From an uncultured Candidatus Melainabacteria bacterium (GTDB taxonomy: Bacteria > Cyanobacteriota > Vampirovibrionia > Gastranaerophilales > Gastranaerophilaceae), in contig CAMUPF010000008.1 of NCBI GenBank assembly GCA_947090755.1, positions 3,901 through 67,900 on the forward strand: a DNA stretch of 64,000 bases, read 5' to 3'. The notes under the pieces were generated by a model. That model was not told the origin of the DNA, ran no database searches, and worked only from the letters and a program-made list of their open reading frames with translations. The translations under genes and the position numbers were made by a program. The stretch's first letter is position 1, and every line of letters starts with the position of its first letter. This document shows positions 3,144 through 51,887 of this stretch, one piece after another.

Positions 3144-4361
3144 ATGATGAAGAAAATGAAAACTACTAAATCTATTATTACATTGTTATTGGGATTGGCG
3201 TTAACGCTGCCATCAGCGGCTTTTGCTGACGCCCCTCAGGATTTATACGATTATGTTTGGAAAAATGTTAATTCTAAATATGTTGACCAGACTAATAACG
3301 AACAAAATTGGGCAAGATGGCGCCATAAGTACGACGCATCTATGAAAACACAGGAAGATGCTTACGTTGCTATCGCGACAATGCTTGCAAGTTTAAATGA
3401 CCCTTACACAAGATTTTTAGACCCGAAAGAATTTGCGGAGGAAACAAGTTCTATTCAAGGCTCTCTAAAAGGTATCGGGATTCAAATTGCGGTTAAAGAC
3501 GGCAAACTTATGGTAATTGCTCCGTTAGAAGGAACACCGGCTGAGCGTGCAGGGATTATCGCCGATGACGAAATTTTGGAAATCGACGGTGTAAGTACAA
3601 AAGGAATTACCGTTGATAAAGCGGCAGATAAAATTAGAGGTAAAGAAGGTACTTCTGTTAACCTTTTGATTAAACGTAAGGATAATGCGCCGAAAGTTTA
3701 CAGAGTTACCCGTGAAAATATTGAAATTAAATCAATTTCACAAAAAACTCCGCTTGATACTGTTGTTCCGCAAAATATGGGTTATATCAAGATTAGTTCA
3801 TTCTTGAGCCGTAATTTAACAAAAGAATTTACCAATGTTCTTGCGCATTCACTGGATAAGCAGGGTTATATTATTGACCTTCGTTCCAATCCGGGCGGAT
3901 TGCTGGATAATGCGATTAATATCTCGGATATGTTCTTACCGGGCGGTGTAATCGTAAGTACGGTCGACCGTGACGGTTACAAGGTTTCACAGCGCGCAGC
4001 AAGAACTGTGTATACAAGCAAACCGCTAGTAGTCTTGATTAACAAGGGCTCGGCGTCTGCAAGCGAAATCCTTTCCGGAGCGCTCAAAGATCACGGACGT
4101 GCTATAATCGTTGGTGAAAAATCTTTTGGTAAAGGCCTTGTTCAAGAGGTTAACCATCTGCCTATGAATTCAGGTATGAATATTACTATTCAAAAATATT
4201 TAACACCTAACGGAAGCGATATCCATAAAAAAGGTATCACGCCTGATGTGGTTGTTGAATTGACAGAGGATAATATTAAGAATAAAGACGACGTTCAATT
4301 GAAAAAAGCAATTGATGTCCTCGGAAATATGATTAAAGAGCAAGCTGTGGCAACCAGATAA
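3144..4361 (+). CDS. ctpA: C-terminal processing peptidase, family S41 (PDZ-containing)
   Basis: Signal peptide MMKKMKTTKSIITLLLGLALTLPSAAFA. PDZ region GIGIQIAVKDGKLMVIAPLEGTPAERAG. Catalytic GSASASEI and SFGKG motifs. The ORF is open from 3111, but the ATG at 3144 follows GGAGGA. Confidence 0.85.
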   Translation: MMKKMKTTKSIITLLLGLALTLPSAAFADAPQDLYDYVWKNVNSKYVDQTNNEQNWARWRHKYDASMKTQEDAYVAIATMLASLNDPYTRFLDPKEFAEETSSIQGSLKGIGIQIAVKDGKLMVIAPLEGTPAERAGIIADDEILEIDGVSTKGITVDKAADKIRGKEGTSVNLLIKRKDNAPKVYRVTRENIEIKSISQKTPLDTVVPQNMGYIKISSFLSRNLTKEFTNVLAHSLDKQGYIIDLRSNPGGLLDNAINISDMFLPGGVIVSTVDRDGYKVSQRAARTVYTSKPLVVLINKGSASASEILSGALKDHGRAIIVGEKSFGKGLVQEVNHLPMNSGMNITIQKYLTPNGSDIHKKGITPDVVVELTEDNIKNKDDVQLKKAIDVLGNMIKEQAVATR

Positions 4362-4364
4362 CCC

Positions 4365-4529
4365 GAAAAAATTTCGTTTGCGAAATTTTTGAGTGACATT
4401 TAGACAGCGCAGCCATGCGCGGCCCAAGGTTCAGCGCGAGCGAGCGGAGTGCGAAGGACGGAAGTCCGAAGGCACGTTTTCCGCGAGTCGAGCAAGACAG
4501 CGGGGCGAAAATGGCGGAGTACTGCTTTT
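4365..4529 (+). repeat. GC-rich repeat element, copy E2 (degenerate)
   Basis: AT hairpin gaaaaaatttcg/cgaaattttt (4365-4390), core tttgagtgacatttagacagcgcag (4388-4412), 3-prime end ggcggagtactgctttt (4513-4529). Shares these blocks with copies at 48750 and 50825. Confidence 0.65.
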
Positions 4530-4530
4530 C

Positions 4531-6894
4531 ATGAAATTCAAAGAGTGGATTTATAATAAAAACGCAAAAGAAGAAGTCGCTTTAACAAAGAGGCTTCTTC
4601 TTTCGCGCGGGTTAAAAGAGCCCGATGAAATCGAGGAGTTTTTAAATCCTCTTGAAATGAAATTAACCTCGCCTTATGACTTTACGGATATGCAAAAGGC
4701 CGTGGACAGGGTTGTTAAAGCTATTGTCAATCGTGAAAAAATAGTTGTTTACGGGGATTTTGACGCTGACGGGGTTACTTCCACCTCACTTCTTGTTAAA
4801 ACTCTTTCCCATCTGGAGGCGAATGTTGATTATTTTATACCACATCGTGAGAAAGAGGGGCACGGCCTTGATTCTGCGGCTCTGGTGAAAATTATCACTG
4901 CTAAAAAGCCGAAACTTATTATCACGGTTGATAACGGTATCAGCAATGTTAAAGAAGTTGCGTTTTTGAAGAGTTTTGGGGTCGAAACGATTATTACTGA
5001 CCACCACGAGGCAAAAGATGATTTACCGGCGGCACTTGCAATAATTAACCCGAAAGCGCCGAATGCTTTATCCGAATCGCTTTCTGCCAGAAAAATTAAG
5101 GAATTAACGTATCTTGCAGGCGTTGGAGTGGCGTTCAAACTTGCGCAGGCGTTATTAGAAAAATTTGATAAAGTGGAATTTGCGCTGAAAATTCTTCCGC
5201 TTGTTGCAGTCGGAACCGTTGCAGATTTAGTGCCGCTGCTTGGCGAAAACAGATGTTTCGTTAAGCGGGGATTGGAACTTATATTAAACCATGCAGGCCT
5301 GCGTGAACTGTTAAACAGTGCGGGCTATTCGCTTGAAAAACCTGTTACTTCCGAAATCGTTGCCTTTGGAATTGCACCGCGTCTAAACGCTTCAGGGCGT
5401 CTGGAAAGCGTTGATAATGCAATGAAACTCCTTTTGAGCGACAATCCTGCAGAAATTCAGATGGCAGTTCAATCCTTGAATGAATTCAATTCTATCCGTC
5501 AGACCCTTTGCAGCGATATCTTTGCTCAAGCCGACGAAATGTGGCAGAAAGAAGGCGCAAAAAGTTCTGCGGTCGTTCTGTTTCATCCTGAATGGCATAT
5601 CGGGATTATCGGAATTGTTGCGTCAAAATTTGTTGAAAAATACCATAAACCTGCATTTTTAATGACTTATTCAGAAGAAACCCAACAATATCGCTGTTCT
5701 GCGCGTGGTGTTAAAGGGTTAAATATTTTCGACATACTGGATGAAAATGCAGAACTTTTTGACGGTTTTGGCGGTCACGAACTTGCCGGCGGTTGTTCTT
5801 TTTCTAAAGAAAAATCCTCCTTTGAAGAAGTTAAATCGGCTATTAATAAAACTGTTAAAACAATGTTGAACGGTGAGGAATTAAAACCATTTATTGAAGT
5901 GGATTTGAAGCTTTCTCCTACAGATATTAATGAGGGGCTCCTCGAGCAATTAGAAATTTTCGAACCTTTCGGTGCATCTAACCCTAATCCGGTTTTTGCC
6001 GTAGAAAATCTTGTTATTAAAGATAAAAAGCTTATGGGGCAGGATAAAAACCATCTTAAAATTATTTGTGACGCCGGCGGGCATGAACTTACCTGTATAT
6101 GGTGGCAAAGAGGTGATGTGACGCTTGATATTGGCGACAGGCTTGATGCGCTTTTTCACCCTAACCTTAACGAATTTAACGGGAATAAGTATTTGCAATT
6201 AATCTTGCAGGATGTGCATTCCGAAGCAATTGAATACGAAAAAGATGCGGTTATACAAAATGAATTGAAATTTTTTGATCACCGCAAAAAAACAAATATT
6301 TTGCCGATGGTCAATGACTATGTTAAAACCTCAAAGTTTAATATACGAGTTTTTGCGGAAAGCAAAAACGTTATTGACACACTAAAGCCTTTTCCGGCTC
6401 TATCTGAGCGGGTTTTTAACCGTAATGGACTTGAAGCATGCGATTCTGTTATGTTATTTGATTATCCCGCTGACCGGCATGCGCTCGGCGAAATTCTTGA
6501 AAAAACCGGTGCGGGAACTATCCATCTAATGAATTATGATATTAAGCATTTTTCTCAGGAAGAACTGCTCCACACAGCATTTAAAATGTTAAAATATTCG
6601 GTAAACTATAACAATGGCGTTGTTGAGCTGTACAAATTTGCAAGTTTTTTAGGTAAATCATACGAGGTTTTAGGCCTTCTTTTTTCTGTTTTTGAGGAAA
6701 CCGGCCTTATTAAAATTATTTCAAAAACATCTCAGTCAATTACGATAACCCTTGACGAAACAGTAAATATTTCGGGAGTTCTTCACTGCACAAATTATCA
6801 AAGCCTTATGGAAACAGCCGTAGAATGTGAAGATTTCCAGACATTTTTGCTCATCGGTGACCTTGACAAGGTTCAGGAAGTATTTGCTATATAA
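4531..6894 (+). CDS. recJ: single-stranded-DNA-specific exonuclease RecJ
   Basis: DHH motifs DFDADGVTS and ITDHH, DHHA1 region GGHELAGG. ATG at 4531 (MKFKEW). The upstream 46 codons of the tracked ORF lie in the GC-rich repeat. Confidence 0.9.
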   Translation: MKFKEWIYNKNAKEEVALTKRLLLSRGLKEPDEIEEFLNPLEMKLTSPYDFTDMQKAVDRVVKAIVNREKIVVYGDFDADGVTSTSLLVKTLSHLEANVDYFIPHREKEGHGLDSAALVKIITAKKPKLIITVDNGISNVKEVAFLKSFGVETIITDHHEAKDDLPAALAIINPKAPNALSESLSARKIKELTYLAGVGVAFKLAQALLEKFDKVEFALKILPLVAVGTVADLVPLLGENRCFVKRGLELILNHAGLRELLNSAGYSLEKPVTSEIVAFGIAPRLNASGRLESVDNAMKLLLSDNPAEIQMAVQSLNEFNSIRQTLCSDIFAQADEMWQKEGAKSSAVVLFHPEWHIGIIGIVASKFVEKYHKPAFLMTYSEETQQYRCSARGVKGLNIFDILDENAELFDGFGGHELAGGCSFSKEKSSFEEVKSAINKTVKTMLNGEELKPFIEVDLKLSPTDINEGLLEQLEIFEPFGASNPNPVFAVENLVIKDKKLMGQDKNHLKIICDAGGHELTCIWWQRGDVTLDIGDRLDALFHPNLNEFNGNKYLQLILQDVHSEAIEYEKDAVIQNELKFFDHRKKTNILPMVNDYVKTSKFNIRVFAESKNVIDTLKPFPALSERVFNRNGLEACDSVMLFDYPADRHALGEILEKTGAGTIHLMNYDIKHFSQEELLHTAFKMLKYSVNYNNGVVELYKFASFLGKSYEVLGLLFSVFEETGLIKIISKTSQSITITLDETVNISGVLHCTNYQSLMETAVECEDFQTFLLIGDLDKVQEVFAI

Positions 6895-7123: not shown

Positions 7124-7525
7124 ATGAAAAAATTATTTGCTTTATTCGCATTATTGGCATTTGCGTCAGCAGGCGCATCTTTTGCAGCCGGAACTTACAC
7201 CGAATCAGTGGTTAATAAATATACCTCAGGAGTTGCTAAAAAAGAACAGCAAATGAGAAATGACGCAGCAGCAAGACAAAAAGCTAACGATGCTAAAAAA
7301 GCAGAGTTCCAGAAGAAAGTAGAAGCTGATAAGGCAGCACGAGAAGCAAGACAGGCTGAATTTAACAAGAAAATTCAAGACCAGCACGCTGCAAATGAAG
7401 CTAAAAAGGCAGAGTTTCAGAAAAAAGTAGAAGCAGATAGAGCTGCACGTGAAGCGCAACAAAAAGCTAACCAACAAAAACTTCAACAAAAGAAAGATGC
7501 CTGGAATACATTAATGGGTAAATAG
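7124..7525 (+). CDS. small secreted coiled-coil repeat protein
   Basis: Signal peptide MKKLFALFALLAFASAGASFA. Two copies of AKKAEFQKKVEAD(K/R)AAREA. SD AAGGAG upstream. Confidence 0.7.
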   Translation: MKKLFALFALLAFASAGASFAAGTYTESVVNKYTSGVAKKEQQMRNDAAARQKANDAKKAEFQKKVEADKAAREARQAEFNKKIQDQHAANEAKKAEFQKKVEADRAAREAQQKANQQKLQQKKDAWNTLMGK

Positions 7526-47207: not shown

Positions 47208-48374
47208 ATGAGTACTCAAAGTGTAAATTTAATAAATTCTAAGGATTTATCGTATCAGTACGACTGGTTTCAAAAAACATTTCCGCCGGTCGTACAGGAA
47301 GTTTTTGATAACTTTTTCGGGCAGAATTTCACGTTTACTCTTCTTGGCGTTTGTAAAAATGTCAATGCGGTTTCTGATAAGGATGCGTATTTTGTCACCA
47401 AAATTAAAATTGATAAACAGCATGATATCTTTTTCCGTATATCAGAAACCTCTATCTCGCTTATACTTGAGAGGGTTCTGGGCAGGCCAAACGGTGCGTT
47501 TGATTTGAATAAGCTTACTGAATTGGAAACTAAGATTATTACAACCTTTAATGATTGTCTTTACAGGTCTGTTGTTAACTTCCTGAAGCCTGCGCCGCCG
47601 ACTCTGGCAAGAACAAATTTTGATGTCGTATATCTGGTATTTATTCTGACCGATGGTGAAACAGGTAAATCCGGAAGGTTTGTTGTTACGCTCCCCGATG
47701 TCTTACTGGAGCCAGAATCTATTGAGGCTCAGGGCGAGTTTTCGGTAGAACATTTTGAAAAAAGTACAATTCAGGCCCGTTTAGAGGTTGGCAGGACTAT
47801 ATTTAAACTGCACGATTTGAAACACCTCGAAATTGATGATATGGTGGTGTTTGAAAATAGTAATACGGATAGATTAAAGTTGTATTTCAGGGATTATGAA
47901 ACGGATGTGTTGTTGAAACCTAATTTAAGTTTGGTGGTACCGGTTGATAATGATGGAGGTTCTGAGGTGTCAGAAAATGAAAATATAAATATTTGGGATA
48001 GTATTGAGGTTGAGATGGTCGGCCACTTTGATGCTGTTGATATTACGCTTGGTGAATTGAAGAAGATTCAGGCCGGAATGGTGGTTGATTTGACTTCAAT
48101 TTATCAAAACAGAGTGACGTTAACCGTTGAGGATAAACAGATTGCGTCCGGCGAACTTGTTATCATTAACGATAAGTACGGCGTGAAGATTACAGAAGTT
48201 TACGCTCCAAAAGCGGCGGATGAAATCGCTCAGGCTCCTGTATCGGAGGGTGTGCCTGCTTCTGATACGGTGGGAGCAGTGGATGATATCCCTGAGGTTT
48301 CAACCGGTGGAGATGGTGTCGGAGATGATGAAGAATTCGATTATAGCGATTTCGATTTAGAGGAGGATATTTAA
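47208..48374 (+). CDS. flagellar motor switch protein, FliM-like with C-terminal FliN/SpoA domain and acidic tail
   Basis: LILERVLGRPNG..LTELETKI (FliM middle-domain-like). The C-terminal LGELKKIQAGMVVDLTS..VEDKQIASGELVIINDKYGVKITEV is a SpoA/FliN fold signature. Confidence 0.7.
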   Translation: MSTQSVNLINSKDLSYQYDWFQKTFPPVVQEVFDNFFGQNFTFTLLGVCKNVNAVSDKDAYFVTKIKIDKQHDIFFRISETSISLILERVLGRPNGAFDLNKLTELETKIITTFNDCLYRSVVNFLKPAPPTLARTNFDVVYLVFILTDGETGKSGRFVVTLPDVLLEPESIEAQGEFSVEHFEKSTIQARLEVGRTIFKLHDLKHLEIDDMVVFENSNTDRLKLYFRDYETDVLLKPNLSLVVPVDNDGGSEVSENENINIWDSIEVEMVGHFDAVDITLGELKKIQAGMVVDLTSIYQNRVTLTVEDKQIASGELVIINDKYGVKITEVYAPKAADEIAQAPVSEGVPASDTVGAVDDIPEVSTGGDGVGDDEEFDYSDFDLEEDI

Positions 48375-48375
48375 G

Positions 48376-48849
48376 GTGACTTCTTATCTTTTGACTTTTA
48401 CGGTTTATACAATGGCTATGGTTGGCATGATTTTTCTTGCGCTGTTTGCTTATAAAAAGTTTTCTGTGCAAAATAATCGTGTTTCGCAATCAAATTTTCT
48501 TGAAGTTGAAGATTGCGTGACTCTCGGTATGCGTAAACAGTTGTATGTTGTAAGAGCAGGAGAAGAAAAATTTTTAATTGCGTCTGATGCAGAAAGAACG
48601 ACATTCCTTTCAAAACTTCAAAACTCAGAAACTCCACGAAAAGAAATTAGTTCCTTCGAGGCTATCGGACATTTTTACCCTGAGGAAGAGCGCGAAAATG
48701 TAAGGAAGGACGCTACGGCAGTTTTGAGAAATATAATAAGCACCCCGAGAAAATTTCGCGAAGAGCGAAATTTTGGAGTGGGGTATGAGACAGCGAAGCC
48801 GGGTACGGCCCGCGGTTCAGCGGGGCGGAGCGGCGAAGAACTGCTTTAG
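48376..48849 (+). CDS. fliO: FliO-like flagellar export protein; C-terminal tail encoded by the GC-rich repeat
   Basis: GTG start after AGGAGGA. Single N-terminal TM segment (TFTVYTMAMVGMIFLALFAY). Position between fliM-like and fliP. Confidence 0.6.
   Translation: MTSYLLTFTVYTMAMVGMIFLALFAYKKFSVQNNRVSQSNFLEVEDCVTLGMRKQLYVVRAGEEKFLIASDAERTTFLSKLQNSETPRKEISSFEAIGHFYPEEERENVRKDATAVLRNIISTPRKFREERNFGVGYETAKPGTARGSAGRSGEELL
48750..48848 (+). repeat. GC-rich repeat element, copy E3
   Basis: Hairpin aaaatttcgc-gaaga-gcgaaatttt (48750-48774), core ttggagtggggtatgagacagcgaag (48773-48798), end ggcgaagaactgcttta (48832-48848). Confidence 0.7.
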
Positions 48850-48862
48850 GAGAAAGAAGATA

Positions 48863-49504
48863 ATGGATAGTGTAATAAAAGATATAAACCCTGTTTTACA
48901 GTTACTTGTTGTAATGACGGTATTTTCGCTAATCCCGTTTATTTTCTGCTGTATGACGAGTTTTTTAAGATTTGCGATAGTGTTTTCAATGCTTAAAACC
49001 GCGATGGGAACCCAACAGGTTCCGCCGAGTATTGTAATTATCGGGTTATCAATGGTTTTGACGTTCTACACAATGGGTGGAACATTCCAAAAAATGTATG
49101 AAATGGGGTCTGTACCTTATCAACAGAGCCAGAATATTGTGGCTGCGATTGACGAGGGTTCTAAGCCCTTAAAAGAATTCATGATGAAACAGACGCGTGA
49201 AAGCGATTTGGCGTTTTTTGTCGAGTTGTCGCAGAAAACTCCGCCTAAAAGCCCTGAGGAAATAACAATATGGCAGGTGGCACCCGCATATATTATGAGC
49301 GAATTGAAAACAGCGTTTGAAATCGGGTTTATAATCTTTGTTCCGTTTATTGTATTAGACCTTGTAGTCGCGAACATTTTGCTGGCTCTGGGGATGTTTA
49401 TGCTGTCGCCGACGATTATTTCGCTGCCGTTTAAACTGCTGATATTTATCGCGGTAGACGGCTGGGGATTGATTGTACAGGGGCTTGTGACAAGTTATAA
49501 CTAA
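48863..49504 (+). CDS. fliP: flagellar export apparatus protein FliP
   Basis: ATG 48863 after AGGAGAAAG. FLRFAIVFSMLKTAMGTQQVPP and AFEIGFIIFVPFIVLDLVVANILLALGM are FliP signatures. Confidence 0.9.
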   Translation: MDSVIKDINPVLQLLVVMTVFSLIPFIFCCMTSFLRFAIVFSMLKTAMGTQQVPPSIVIIGLSMVLTFYTMGGTFQKMYEMGSVPYQQSQNIVAAIDEGSKPLKEFMMKQTRESDLAFFVELSQKTPPKSPEEITIWQVAPAYIMSELKTAFEIGFIIFVPFIVLDLVVANILLALGMFMLSPTIISLPFKLLIFIAVDGWGLIVQGLVTSYN

Positions 49505-49529
49505 CCGGAAAGCGTGGAGGTGTCGAGTT

Positions 49530-50024
49530 ATGGAACTTATGGTTGAATATTTAGCAAAAGGCTTTCTGGTAATGCTTTCGATTTCAATGCCGTGTGTATT
49601 AGTTGCGGCCGGAATCGGTCTTGTCGTCGGTATTTTGCAGGCGGTTACACAGGTTCAGGAACAAACTATCGCCGCGGCGCCGAAAATTCTCGGTGTATTC
49701 CTGATAATTATTATCGGCGGTTACGCATTTATGAATAATTTAAGTAACTTTTTTATTCAGGGGATGGGCTTAGCGTTCAATGTTTTGCCTAAGAATGACA
49801 GTTTTGTACTTTCTTCTGATTATTACAAATACACAACACCGTTTCAGGGTGAAATGGATGCTGATAAATTCAAAAATGTTCCTGATATCAATGAAATTAT
49901 GAAAAATCCGGGAAAGGTTCCATATATTGATAAATATGAACGTGCAAAATATCATCCGTCAGCGCGTACACCGATGCCGCGTCCTAATCTGATTGAAACG
50001 AATCAGATTTTAAGAGGTCAATAG
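49530..50024 (+). CDS. fliQ: flagellar export apparatus protein FliQ with ~75-aa C-terminal extension
   Basis: The first ~88 aa match FliQ (GILQAVTQVQEQTIAAAPKILGVF). The ORF continues for about 75 further residues. Confidence 0.85.
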   Translation: MELMVEYLAKGFLVMLSISMPCVLVAAGIGLVVGILQAVTQVQEQTIAAAPKILGVFLIIIIGGYAFMNNLSNFFIQGMGLAFNVLPKNDSFVLSSDYYKYTTPFQGEMDADKFKNVPDINEIMKNPGKVPYIDKYERAKYHPSARTPMPRPNLIETNQILRGQ

Positions 50025-50028
50025 ACAG

Positions 50029-50814
50029 ATGAACGGGTTTGATTTTCTGACTGAACTTGTGAAGATTTTTCCGGAATTGGATAAATGTCTGATTGTCGGA
50101 ATCTTGATATTCTCAAGGTTGATGGGATTTTCACGATTTGCGCCAATTTTGAACAGAAAAGAAATTCCGGGGATGGTGAAACTTTGTCTTATTTTTATTT
50201 TGACTGTAACGATTACTATGGTTGCAAAGCCTGATGGACAGTTACTTCAGGATTCGTTGTTGTTGTCGATTGTTTTAAATTTCGTCGTCGGCGGACTTCT
50301 GGGGTATGTTGCTCAGGTAATTTTGATTGCGATAGAAGCGGGCGCTGATATGATTAATATGCAAATGGGGCTTTCTTCAGCTATGGTTCTTGATCCGACG
50401 ACTTCAAGTCAGGTGTCGATTCTGGGTAAATGCTTTTCGCTCTTTGCGCTGTGTATTTTTATACATATCGGCGGGTTTTATTGGATGATGAATGCGTTTA
50501 TGAAAAGTATGGAGGTCTTCCCGATTTACGCTACATCTATCCCGCTGGAGAAGATTGTAAACCTTGATTATCTGGTGAAAATTACGTCAAATGTGCTGTA
50601 TATGGGCCTTCAACTTGCGTCACCAGTGCTTCTGGCGACACTCGGACAGGATATTATTCTTGGCGTAATTTCAAAAACTGCGCCGCAGGTAAACGTTTTC
50701 CAGTTAAGCTTTCTTTTTAAACCTGTACTTGGCGCGGCGATAATGGTTTGGATTTTGCCGATGCTGTTTAATATAATTCAGGATTATCTGACGTCATACA
50801 GCCGAATATTTTAA
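50029..50814 (+). CDS. fliR: flagellar export apparatus protein FliR
   Basis: 261 aa, multi-TM, FSRLMGFSRFAPIL and GLQLASPVLLATL motifs. Follows fliQ. Confidence 0.85.
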   Translation: MNGFDFLTELVKIFPELDKCLIVGILIFSRLMGFSRFAPILNRKEIPGMVKLCLIFILTVTITMVAKPDGQLLQDSLLLSIVLNFVVGGLLGYVAQVILIAIEAGADMINMQMGLSSAMVLDPTTSSQVSILGKCFSLFALCIFIHIGGFYWMMNAFMKSMEVFPIYATSIPLEKIVNLDYLVKITSNVLYMGLQLASPVLLATLGQDIILGVISKTAPQVNVFQLSFLFKPVLGAAIMVWILPMLFNIIQDYLTSYSRIF

Positions 50815-50824
50815 CTGTCCGAGC

Positions 50825-50933
50825 AAATCTCGCGATAAGGAACGTGAGCGAGATTTGGGAGTGGCGTATGAGACAGCGCAGTCGCGGGTTGACTCGCGTG
50901 AGCGAGGCAAGCAGGCGACGGAGAACTGCTTTA
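50825..50933 (+). repeat. GC-rich repeat element, copy E4
   Basis: Hairpin aaatctcgc-(14 nt)-gcgagattt (50825-50856), core ttgggagtggcgtatgagacagcgcag (50855-50881), end ggcgacggagaactgcttta (50914-50933). Confidence 0.7.
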
Positions 50934-51887
50934 TTCTAAAACTATTGCCGCGATGAGGATTATTGACATATACATCATAATATTGCGTGATAAAAGCAGG
51001 CGAAAATAGAAGCTTTCAGCGCCGTCTTTTACAACTTGTGTCCAGTTGTCCAGCGGAAAATTAAGTTTATTTATACGTGGAATTACAGTTTTATCGGCGT
51101 TGAATTGAAGTAATTCTTTGAAAAGCCAGACGATGTAAGGTAAAGTTATAAATCCTGCAAGATAAAGCCGGTTGTGGCTCATAAGCGTAAGCGCTATGAG
51201 TGAAAGGAAGCCGATATCAAAGAAGATTGCCAATAATATAAGCGCTTTATTTTTATCACCAATGCGGCAGGCAAGAGTTTTCTTGTGCGAAACCATATCG
51301 CCGTCGTAGTCCAAAACTGTATGTGTGTAAAGGAATTGTTCAGAAAACATCACGCTGACAAGCGAAAGAATAAGAACTTCAAGTGAAAAATTTCCGGTCA
51401 TAACATAATATGTTCCTTCGAACATCAACGGGCCGTATACGATTCCGACGGCAAGTTCACTGCAGCCGATAAGCGAACATTTCTGATAAAATAAAACTGC
51501 TGCCGCGCCGATTGCCATTAACCACCATACGTGCGGGCCGCTCAGGAAAAACAGGGTTATACCGATTAGTGATGCAAGTGAACAAAGGATTATAATTGCG
51601 ATTCCGATTTGCTTGTGGCTGATGATGTTTTGACAAATAAGTCTGCATTTACCCTTTTGAACGGTGTTGTGAAAATTCCGGTCGCGCAGGATGATTTTGT
51701 AATCGAGGTAATCATCGACAAGGTTTGTCGCAAGGTGCGCAAGTTCTATGCCAAGGCCTGCAAGGAGCCCGAGCCAGATGTTTCCGCCCATTTTAACCCC
51801 GTAGGCAAAAATTACAGCCCACGACATAACCGTAATCGGGATTGAATAGGCTCTCACACATTCTAACCAGTTTTTAACAATACTCAT
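50931..51887 (-). CDS. UbiA-family aromatic prenyltransferase (MenA-like)
   Basis: Multi-TM, Asp-rich NLVDDYLDY motif. 318 aa. Confidence 0.75.
   Translation of the reverse strand: MSIVKNWLECVRAYSIPITVMSWAVIFAYGVKMGGNIWLGLLAGLGIELAHLATNLVDDYLDYKIILRDRNFHNTVQKGKCRLICQNIISHKQIGIAIIILCSLASLIGITLFFLSGPHVWWLMAIGAAAVLFYQKCSLIGCSELAVGIVYGPLMFEGTYYVMTGNFSLEVLILSLVSVMFSEQFLYTHTVLDYDGDMVSHKKTLACRIGDKNKALILLAIFFDIGFLSLIALTLMSHNRLYLAGFITLPYIVWLFKELLQFNADKTVIPRINKLNFPLDNWTQVVKDGAESFYFRLLLSRNIMMYMSIILIAAIVLE

Follow-up and report, generated by a model that had tools for sequence, protein, structure and literature searches.

Seamlessly inserted GC-rich repeats of gut Gastranaerophilales: a probable new family of small mobile DNA elements

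Overview

The DNA analysed here is a stretch of 64,000 nucleotides (the window) from an uncultured Candidatus Melainabacteria bacterium of the Gastranaerophilales (assembly GCA_947090755.1, contig CAMUPF010000008.1, positions 3,901 to 67,900). Three GC-rich repeats in the window, designated E2, E3 and E4, are, with a probability which we put at roughly 0.7, members of a family, not described before, of short GC-rich mobile DNA elements that are non-coding and insert seamlessly, usually after a host TGT trinucleotide and possibly by a single-strand mechanism. Insertions are found where neighbouring genes are most closely packed and, in some cases, within reading frames. E3 and E4 had been noticed from the sequence as two similar copies flanking fliP-fliQ-fliR, for which a miniature inverted-repeat transposable element (MITE) or repetitive extragenic palindrome (REP)-like element, a structured RNA or a small-peptide gene had been proposed (the original prediction).

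Filled and empty insertion sites

The E3 site was found to be empty in four lineages, L055, L058, L059 and L063 (L-numbers denote fetched loci which were compared with the window), where the sequence reads AGCACC|GGAGAGAGAAGATAATGG; in the window it reads AGCACC|CCGAG...CTGCTTTA|GGAGAAAGAAGATAATGG. As all four empty-site lineages align in this way, E3 was defined as an exact 104-nt insertion with no host bases duplicated or deleted, and the former GERR-TAA-ATG(fliP) junction is intact directly downstream of it. The FliO proteins of close relatives which lack the element (84-90% identical) are 128-131 amino acids long and end in ...LRNIISTGERR*, compared with 157 amino acids and the end ...LRNIIST-PRKFREERNFGVGYETAKPGTARGSAGRSGEELL* in the window. 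A second frame of E3 does supply the end of fliO, as had been suggested, although the contribution is 34 residues and not about 25.

The E2 site is empty in L066 and L068 (CAGATAG-T-ATG) and in L069 (CAGATAATG), with at most one ambiguous C as a target duplication, and L071 carries at this site a 53-nt, 5'-truncated relic (7222-7274, 3' half only) whose right junction, CTGCTTTT|CATG, is that of E2. L055, L059 and L063 have no element at the E4 site, and in them fliR and the UbiA-like gene overlap by 4-12 nt; divergence of the flanks, together with about 15 additional bases at the right in the window, prevented an exact boundary from being drawn here. Two further copies were observed in L058: a degenerate one in the opposite orientation (5337-5458, minus strand), which lies in frame within fliO and gives a 40-residue insert in a FliO of 170 amino acids (P0013), and one directly after the fliP stop (6152-6255, plus strand), within which the contig ends. 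Short-read contigs stop or start within copies in L001-L006, L058 and L063-L065, and L056 has an N-gap at the E4 position.

The distribution of copies at orthologous sites is patchy. The window shares E3 with the more distant L056 and L057, and the intervening clade (L055, L058, L059 and L063) lacks it; E2 occurs in the window and, reduced to a relic, in the more distant L071, but not in the closer L066. This patchiness is compatible with seamless excision; repeated insertion at one nucleotide is a possible alternative source of it.

Copies in the window

The coordinates given in the original prediction needed little adjustment and were refined to those listed below, together with the parts of each copy and the neighbouring genes.

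48745-48848, plus strand: E3, complete element of 104 nt, covariance-model score 104.5 bits, bounds set by the empty-site comparison; between the fliO codon ACC (Thr122) and the old GGA-GAA-AGA-AGA-TAA tail
48742-48744: ACC, the E3 equivalent of the target trinucleotide
48750-48774, plus strand: E3 hairpin P1 (AAAATTTCGC-GAAGA-GCGAAATTTT), inverted-repeat arms 48750-48759 and 48765-48774
48776-48795, plus strand: E3 core, GAGTGGGGTATGAGACAGCG; GAGTGG within it is able to pair with the 5' end and flank, and AG.CAG with the 3' CTGCT
48798-48834, plus strand: E3 GC-rich hairpin P2, short type, GGTTCA loop
48835-48848, plus strand: E3 3' module, GAAGAACTGCTTTA; its final TA and a host G form the new fliO stop TAG (48847-48849)
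50819-50933, plus strand: E4, complete element of 115 nt, covariance-model score 127.5 bits, bounds by analogy with E3; flanked by the fliR stop (50812-50814) and the UbiA-like gene, which runs convergently
50816-50818, plus strand: TGT, host trinucleotide 5' of E4, the preferred target
50824-50857, plus strand: E4 hairpin P1 (CAAATCTCGC - GATAAGGAACGTGA - GCGAGATTTG), arms 50824-50833 and 50848-50857
50859-50878, plus strand: E4 core, GAGTGGCGTATGAGACAGCG
50881-50919, plus strand: E4 GC-rich hairpin P2, long type, TCGC-GGG-TTGACTCGC-GTGA-GCGAGGCAA-GCAG-GCGA
50920-50933, plus strand: E4 3' module, GGAGAACTGCTTTA; read on the opposite strand, 50931-50933 gives the UbiA-like gene its TAA stop
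4363-4529, plus strand: E2, third window copy, covariance-model score 64.8 bits; between the stop of a ctpA-like (S41 peptidase) gene (4359-4361) and the recJ ATG (4531)
47208-48374: fliY/N
48376-48849, plus strand: fliO, native part to 48744, residues 123-156 (PRKFREERNFGVGYETAKPGTARGSAGRSGEELL) from E3
48864-49504: fliP, followed by fliQ
50029-50814: fliR
50931-51887, minus strand: UbiA-like gene, convergent

E2, E3 and E4 were the only family members in the window when the covariance model was run with all filters off. The conserved core that had been described, GAGTGG(G/C)GTATGAGACAGCG, has two exact plus-strand matches (48776-48795 and 50859-50878), and both copies close with GA(A/G)AACTGCTTTA. 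The GC content of the copies (0.57-0.59) is, as had also been reported, far above that of their surroundings (about 0.39-0.42) and of the window on average (about 0.40). E2 was found by a scan for GC-rich islands and a relaxed pattern; the exact-core search had overlooked it because its core is GAGTGACATTTAGACAGCG, without the ATG. The core was not matched in any of 100 dinucleotide-preserving shuffles, even with up to 3 mismatches permitted, and about 50 copies with the same architecture and covarying helices occur elsewhere, so that chance similarity of two local GC-rich spacers, the outcome which would have overturned the original prediction, can be dismissed.

Relative to the type seen in L016, L031 and L071, E2 has an extra GC-rich segment of about 62 nt within P2 (about 4437-4498), with CAGCG on either side, which may be a nested insertion or an internal duplication.

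Structure of the element

The element is about 100-170 nt in length. An alignment (A3) of 40 distinct copies, from which the covariance model was made, gave the following order of parts, 5' to 3': CCGA(R), of which CCGA is invariant; hairpin P1; one base; the core, GAGTGGCGTAT(T/G)AGACAGCG; (C/A)AG; hairpin P2; and the 3' module GGAG(A/G)(A/T)CTGCTTT(W), which ends in GGAGNNCTGCTTT(W). P1 has a 10-bp AT-rich stem and a loop which is either short or a recurrent 14-nt sequence (GATAAGGAACGTGA); the entry hairpins noticed earlier in E3 and E4 are both perfect 10-bp inverted repeats. P2 is GC-rich and variable in length, with at least three length or sequence types (short, long and nested), and is built of two helices separated by an internal loop, the outer of 4-5 bp and the inner of 8-9 bp, the latter often with a purine-purine mismatch.

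Standard pairs were found in 96.9% of A3 cells, compared with 86% in column shuffles and 32-48% when partners were slid, and double changes were seen in 16 of the 26 pairs (P1, 9/10; outer P2, 3/4; inner P2, 3/3). Two further helices are predicted from invariant bases, one joining the 5' CC and the two preceding host bases to G(T)GGC of the core and the other joining AG(A)CAG of the core to the 3' CTGCT; together, on this model, they would draw both element ends to the core. The 5' helix is separated from P1 by a symmetric internal loop, GA(R)/(N)GA, which does not vary in A3. Within the predicted 5' helix, the flank base at -1 is always a pyrimidine and could pair with the opposite core purine in 40/40 copies. 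E3 has a unique flank C at -2 and a unique core G opposite, where its L056 orthologue has G and C; this exchange is suggestive as one compensatory case, but is no proof.

Both strands fold more stably than shuffled sequences. With DNA parameters, values of -28 kcal/mol (z -4.4 to -4.6) and -20 kcal/mol (z -2.8) were obtained for the top and bottom strands, respectively, and the RNA fold of E3 has a z of about -4. Folding of the top strand is favoured because stem mismatches read on it are G.T in 9 cases and A.C in 1. The covariation is no proof of an RNA, since folded single-stranded DNA fits it equally well.

The 14-nt P1 loop was observed in exactly inverted form (TCACGTTCCTTATC) at identical loci in different samples (L033 5786-5896 versus L026 3842-3952 and L051; L028/L035 versus L044), that is, at two loci and in three independent assemblies. 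Such flipped loops indicate that the P1 loop needs no fixed orientation, and a flip of this kind would be the expected product of strand-switching at a DNA hairpin.

Ends, target and orientation

Terminal inverted repeats were not found in E2, E3 or E4, in which the arms of P1 are the sole inverted repeats and the 5' CCGAG... and 3' ...CTGCTTTA ends are non-complementary. No target-site duplication was found either (E3 AGCACC|element|GGAGAA compared with empty AGCACC|GGAGAG). Of 37 distinct loci, 25 have TGT as the 5' flank, a trinucleotide with a background frequency of 1.6% in the window, and the target is more loosely Y-G-Y. Information content at -3 to -1 is 1.0-1.5 bits, below that of the invariant element end, and falls to background from -4 outward. 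The flank trinucleotide is host-derived at the three sites where this could be checked (E3, ACC; E4, TGT; L058 fliP, AAC), and TGT pre-exists at the empty E4 site of L055 and L063 (TAATGT|CGCG).

Where the neighbouring genes are in tandem, 9 copies point the same way as the genes and 10 the opposite way, with a further 7 copies in convergent and 8 in divergent contexts; the element is randomly oriented with respect to its gene neighbours. In the window, all three copies are on the G-rich strand. Head-to-tail CTGCTTT...CCGA arrangements, which would resemble a circle junction, were absent from the fetched DNA.

Distribution of the family

The core pattern was found at 9 loci in contigs representing one genome per species, 8 of which are full elements. 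Ca. Gastranaerophilus phascolarctosicola Zag_221 has five exact-core copies with two variant copies nearby, and the remaining matches fall in two other Gastranaerophilales metagenome-assembled genomes (MAGs) and one MAG labelled Fusobacterium; 10 of the genome matches are genuine. A slightly looser pattern gave 39 metagenome loci, about 32 of them genuine and mainly from human gut, and the covariance model gave 52 good matches in 475 kb of fetched DNA. The copy-number check in other genomes put forward earlier thus yielded about 50 further copies. L012, L023, L024, L030, L037, L040 and L052 were set aside as chance or unrelated matches, sharing only the core string within unrelated higher-GC DNA. 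There was no match to the element in viral contigs, phage records or plasmids. Only tRNAs reached the Rfam 15 gathering score in the window, the elements remaining unmatched, and at E<=10 the sole match in 48600-51100 was a chance snoRNA match outside the elements. A literature search on repeats or MITEs in Gastranaerophilales or Melainabacteria returned nothing relevant. As far as these sequence searches show, the family is limited to the Gastranaerophilales (Melainabacteria/Vampirovibrionia).

The MAG labelled Fusobacterium sp. (GCA_023662905.1, JAMPIJ01; L015 and L055) contains a fliY-fliOPQR-ubiA block which is syntenic with the window and 78-88% identical to it, and for this reason the label is almost certainly wrong (taxonomy or binning). 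This MAG lacks E3 and E4 but has a copy elsewhere (L015).

Two shorter, AT-richer sequences, L007 3939-4015 and L058 3568-3654, share only the 5' module (TGT|CCGA-hairpin-TGAGTRNC) and differ in their 3' parts; a wider superfamily may exist, with the 5' module as its oldest or essential unit. Identical or near-identical copies with one flank in common and the other different were seen in L010 versus L025 and in L028 versus L035 versus L033, the cause being either that copies have recombined or that the assembly is chimeric at the repeat.

Proposed mechanism and alternative explanations

The element would be non-autonomous and would be moved by a trans-acting recombinase which recognises the folded top strand and not inverted-repeat ends. 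The core would pair on one side with the 5' end and neighbouring host sequence and on the other with the 3' CTGCT, thereby uniting both junctions, and excision would probably be seamless. The closest known mechanism is the single-strand 'peel and paste' of the HUH/Y1 transposases (IS200/IS605 TnpA and the REP-associated tyrosine transposases, RAYT). Single-strand systems of this kind have no inverted-repeat ends and make no duplication, insert 3' of a short motif, have hairpins near both ends and fold the top strand.

Several observations weigh against mobility of this kind. Searches with IS200 TnpA and E. coli RAYT (tblastn) gave no significant match in about 0.6 Mb of related DNA, and when open reading frames (ORFs) near copies were clustered, response regulators and prepilin-like proteins recurred but no recombinase did. 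The two hairpins are dissimilar, P1 being AT-rich and P2 GC-rich. At 19 distinct loci the top strand is the locally G-rich one, versus 10 where it is the other (|z|>2 only; p about 0.14), which is a trend. Pairing of core and flank draws on conserved bases and one compensatory case, and is absent in E2. The empty-site comparison at E4 is unclean, owing to the extra right-hand bases, and no insertion polymorphism was seen within a species, so recent activity is not proven. In addition, E3 of the window is 90-91% identical to its orthologues in L056 and L057, with the first 38 nt (5' end and P1) identical, while in the same species comparison the fliO flank is 67% and fliP 84% identical. Conservation in place of this degree is unexpected for a purely selfish, decaying insert, the decay of which should be no slower than that of synonymous sites. 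For this single orthologous pair the candidate causes are selection acting in place, conversion by other copies and separate site-specific insertions.

The same comparison is an argument for an unlikely, though credible, alternative in which a once mobile REP-like element is now maintained by the host, for example as a protein-binding site or a site of mRNA processing or stability in operons such as fliO-fliP. Such a role would also accommodate the 13 element-encoded residues PRKFREERNFGV(A/G), near-invariant in five FliO variants which are otherwise 68-88% identical, the conservation of core and internal loops across species while the stems covary, and the tandem G-A/G-A internal loop between the 5' helix and P1. 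Against it stand the random orientation relative to transcription, the decay of copies to relics (L071, the internal copy of L058 and L034), the many related genomes which do well without a copy at a given site and the reliance of the conservation argument on one cross-species pair. A little less probable again is a self-guided unit of a new kind, in which the invariant 20-nt core would be an internal bridge, one half paired with the 5' end and three adjacent host bases and the other half with the 3' CTGCT, joining both junctions for seamless excision and TGT-directed integration; the catalyst would be an enzyme or, conceivably, the element's own folded nucleic acid, and the copies, which are better conserved than the coding DNA beside them, would be under selection in place. 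We give slightly less credence still to a structured non-coding RNA family (a small RNA or cis-acting motif, possibly catalytic) whose genes have multiplied. The strong covariation of P1 and P2, the conserved unpaired core and internal loops, the GNRA-like tetraloops on P2 (GTGA, GAGA, GGGA), the preference of the top strand for G.U over A.C and the stability of the E3 RNA fold are all features which an RNA would have; an RNA is, however, difficult to reconcile with the lack of any Rfam match even at the relaxed threshold, the absence of promoter- or terminator-like sites and of a conserved upstream flank past 3 nt, the location of half of the tandem-context copies antisense to surrounding genes and of one copy (L058) antisense within a coding region, the tolerance of flipped P1 loops, and the clean filled and empty sites, which are DNA-level behaviour. 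More generally, a cis-acting mRNA or other RNA function is unlikely because orientation is random, promoters and terminators are lacking and Rfam has no match.

The least credible of these proposals, refuted as a property of the family and given almost no weight, is a gene for a small Arg-rich peptide (MRQRSR...) with its own Shine-Dalgarno sequence. E3 and E4 do have GGAG, a 6-7-nt spacer and ATG, the 23-codon ORF of E4 encodes MRQRSRGLTRVSEASRRRRTALF* as had been read, and the ATG frame of E3 enters fliP (ORF 48773-49504). Among 41 distinct copies, however, the putative start triplet is ATT in 23, ATG in 14, TTT in 3 and GTT in 1 (a count which includes one scan that itself required ATG), GGAG occurs in 8/41, and copies divide 9 versus 5 in the frame that leads from the ATG to the 3' end. 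As most copies have ATT and the frame is not conserved, the mini-ORF idea fails; furthermore, stops fall in the host flank at varying positions, and E2, in the same window, lacks the ATG.

Comparison with known elements and motifs

The element resembles the non-autonomous palindrome-associated transposable elements derived from IS200/IS605, and REP/REPIN sequences, in lacking terminal inverted repeats and target-site duplications, in inserting directly 3' of a short specific host sequence, in having hairpins near both ends with the top strand apparently the folded one, and in a patchy distribution that fits seamless excision. In IS200/IS605 elements one TnpA recognises imperfect subterminal hairpins that are alike at the two ends, and these elements usually show a strong replication bias, with the top strand on the lagging-strand template. 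The two hairpins of the present element, in contrast, are dissimilar, its possible guide lies 3' and not 5' of the left hairpin, its target is only about 3 nt (TGT), its replication-strand bias is weak and no Y1 transposase was found in the DNA searched. By analogy it would work like IS200/IS605 or REP systems, but membership is unproven; it was filed as working like them because the hairpins differ, the strand skew is 19 versus 10, there is no Y1 gene in the 0.6 Mb and no recombinase recurs near copies.

Assignment to REPs (RAYT-associated) was rejected: these are palindromes of 20-40 nt with a 5' GTAG, whereas the element is 100-170 nt, has two different hairpins and begins with CCGAR. As to MITEs, the element is short, non-coding and dispersed in about 50 copies, with filled and empty sites and no conserved ORF, so the MITE/REP-like description was apt to that extent; a classical MITE derived from a DDE transposon was rejected, as both the terminal inverted repeats and the target-site duplication are missing. 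Integron attC sites, in which R''/R' core sites (RYYYAAC ... GTTRRRY) close one imperfect hairpin, were likewise rejected; the element has the ends CCGAR and CTGCTTTW, two separate hairpins and dispersed copies without arrays.

Rickettsia palindromic elements, which are hairpin elements of about 100-150 nt found between genes and within reading frames as extra peptide segments, are similar in forming hairpins and in being tolerated in reading frames and translated (the FliO tail and the 40-residue insert of P0013). They belong to a different phylum and, compared by description only, are not GC-rich islands with a conserved unpaired core. Modularity, with 5' and 3' modules that can pair and a middle of variable length, is shared with pneumococcal BOX (boxA-boxB(n)-boxC), ERIC and Correia elements. 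The ends of BOX, RUP and Correia elements are inverted repeats, and their TA duplication is linked to DDE transposases; the present element has neither such ends nor a TA duplication. The GC clusters and double-hairpin elements of fungal mitochondria, for which mobility is inferred from presence and absence, are also short GC-rich hairpins spread across an AT-rich genome, in-frame gene positions included, but are organellar, much shorter and without sequence in common with the element.

No intrinsic terminator was found in or at E2, E3 or E4, in which GGAGAA separates P2 from CTGCTTT, and no sigma-70-like promoter was found in or at the copies. Hammerhead, hepatitis delta virus-like and group I-like ribozymes, a sigma-54 promoter and a CsrA site were considered by eye and rejected, the defining motifs being absent or out of register; the P1 loop carrying AAGGAA is missing in E2 and E3.

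Effects on host genes and significance

An element inside a reading frame is simply translated or gives a new stop codon. FliO gains a 34-residue Arg/Gly-rich tail from E3, with a new TAG stop 14 nt before the fliP ATG, and E4 provides the TAA stop of the UbiA-like gene. E2 parts ctpA and recJ, which abut or overlap in relatives, and places a GGAG 11 nt before the recJ ATG. ORF callers are misled by the element, as in the ORFs 4393-6894 and 48773-49504, and short-read assemblies of Gastranaerophilales genomes break at it.

The family would add to the few small mobile repeats of bacteria without inverted-repeat ends and target duplications and is, as far as the literature search shows, the first repeat family for gut Melainabacteria. 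The element could be a strain marker for Gastranaerophilales. If its enzyme were found, a seamless, TGT-targeting, structure-recognising system would be of interest to transposon biologists.

Other observations in the window

A further GC-rich (about 70%) repeat, E1 (2735-2900), was considered as a family member and rejected; it has no covariance-model match and belongs to another family, with an 11-bp terminal inverted repeat (CAAGCCGAGCA...TGCTCGGCTTG). E1 lies in the leader-peptide region of a minus-strand prepilin-like gene (ATG near 2947; mature part ...AFTMAEILLSL). Because of a G12 tract within it (2881-2892), the frame of the ATG is offset by one base from that of the pilin, a sign of either phase variation at the tract or a mistake in the assembly. 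E1-related copies were found in L007 (5042-5177) and, at a different locus and 87% identical, in L056 (16388-16496). Prepilin-like proteins with the FTMAEIL motif ranked second in recurrence among the families of the fetched DNA (26 ORFs in 21 loci), and some have long GC-rich coding leaders, for example L007 201-1310.

In this clade FliQ (49530-50024) has 164 amino acids and exceeds the usual length of about 89 amino acids by some 75 residues at the C terminus. An extra ORF of 110 amino acids lies between fliQ and fliR in L055 and L059, and is absent from the window and L063.

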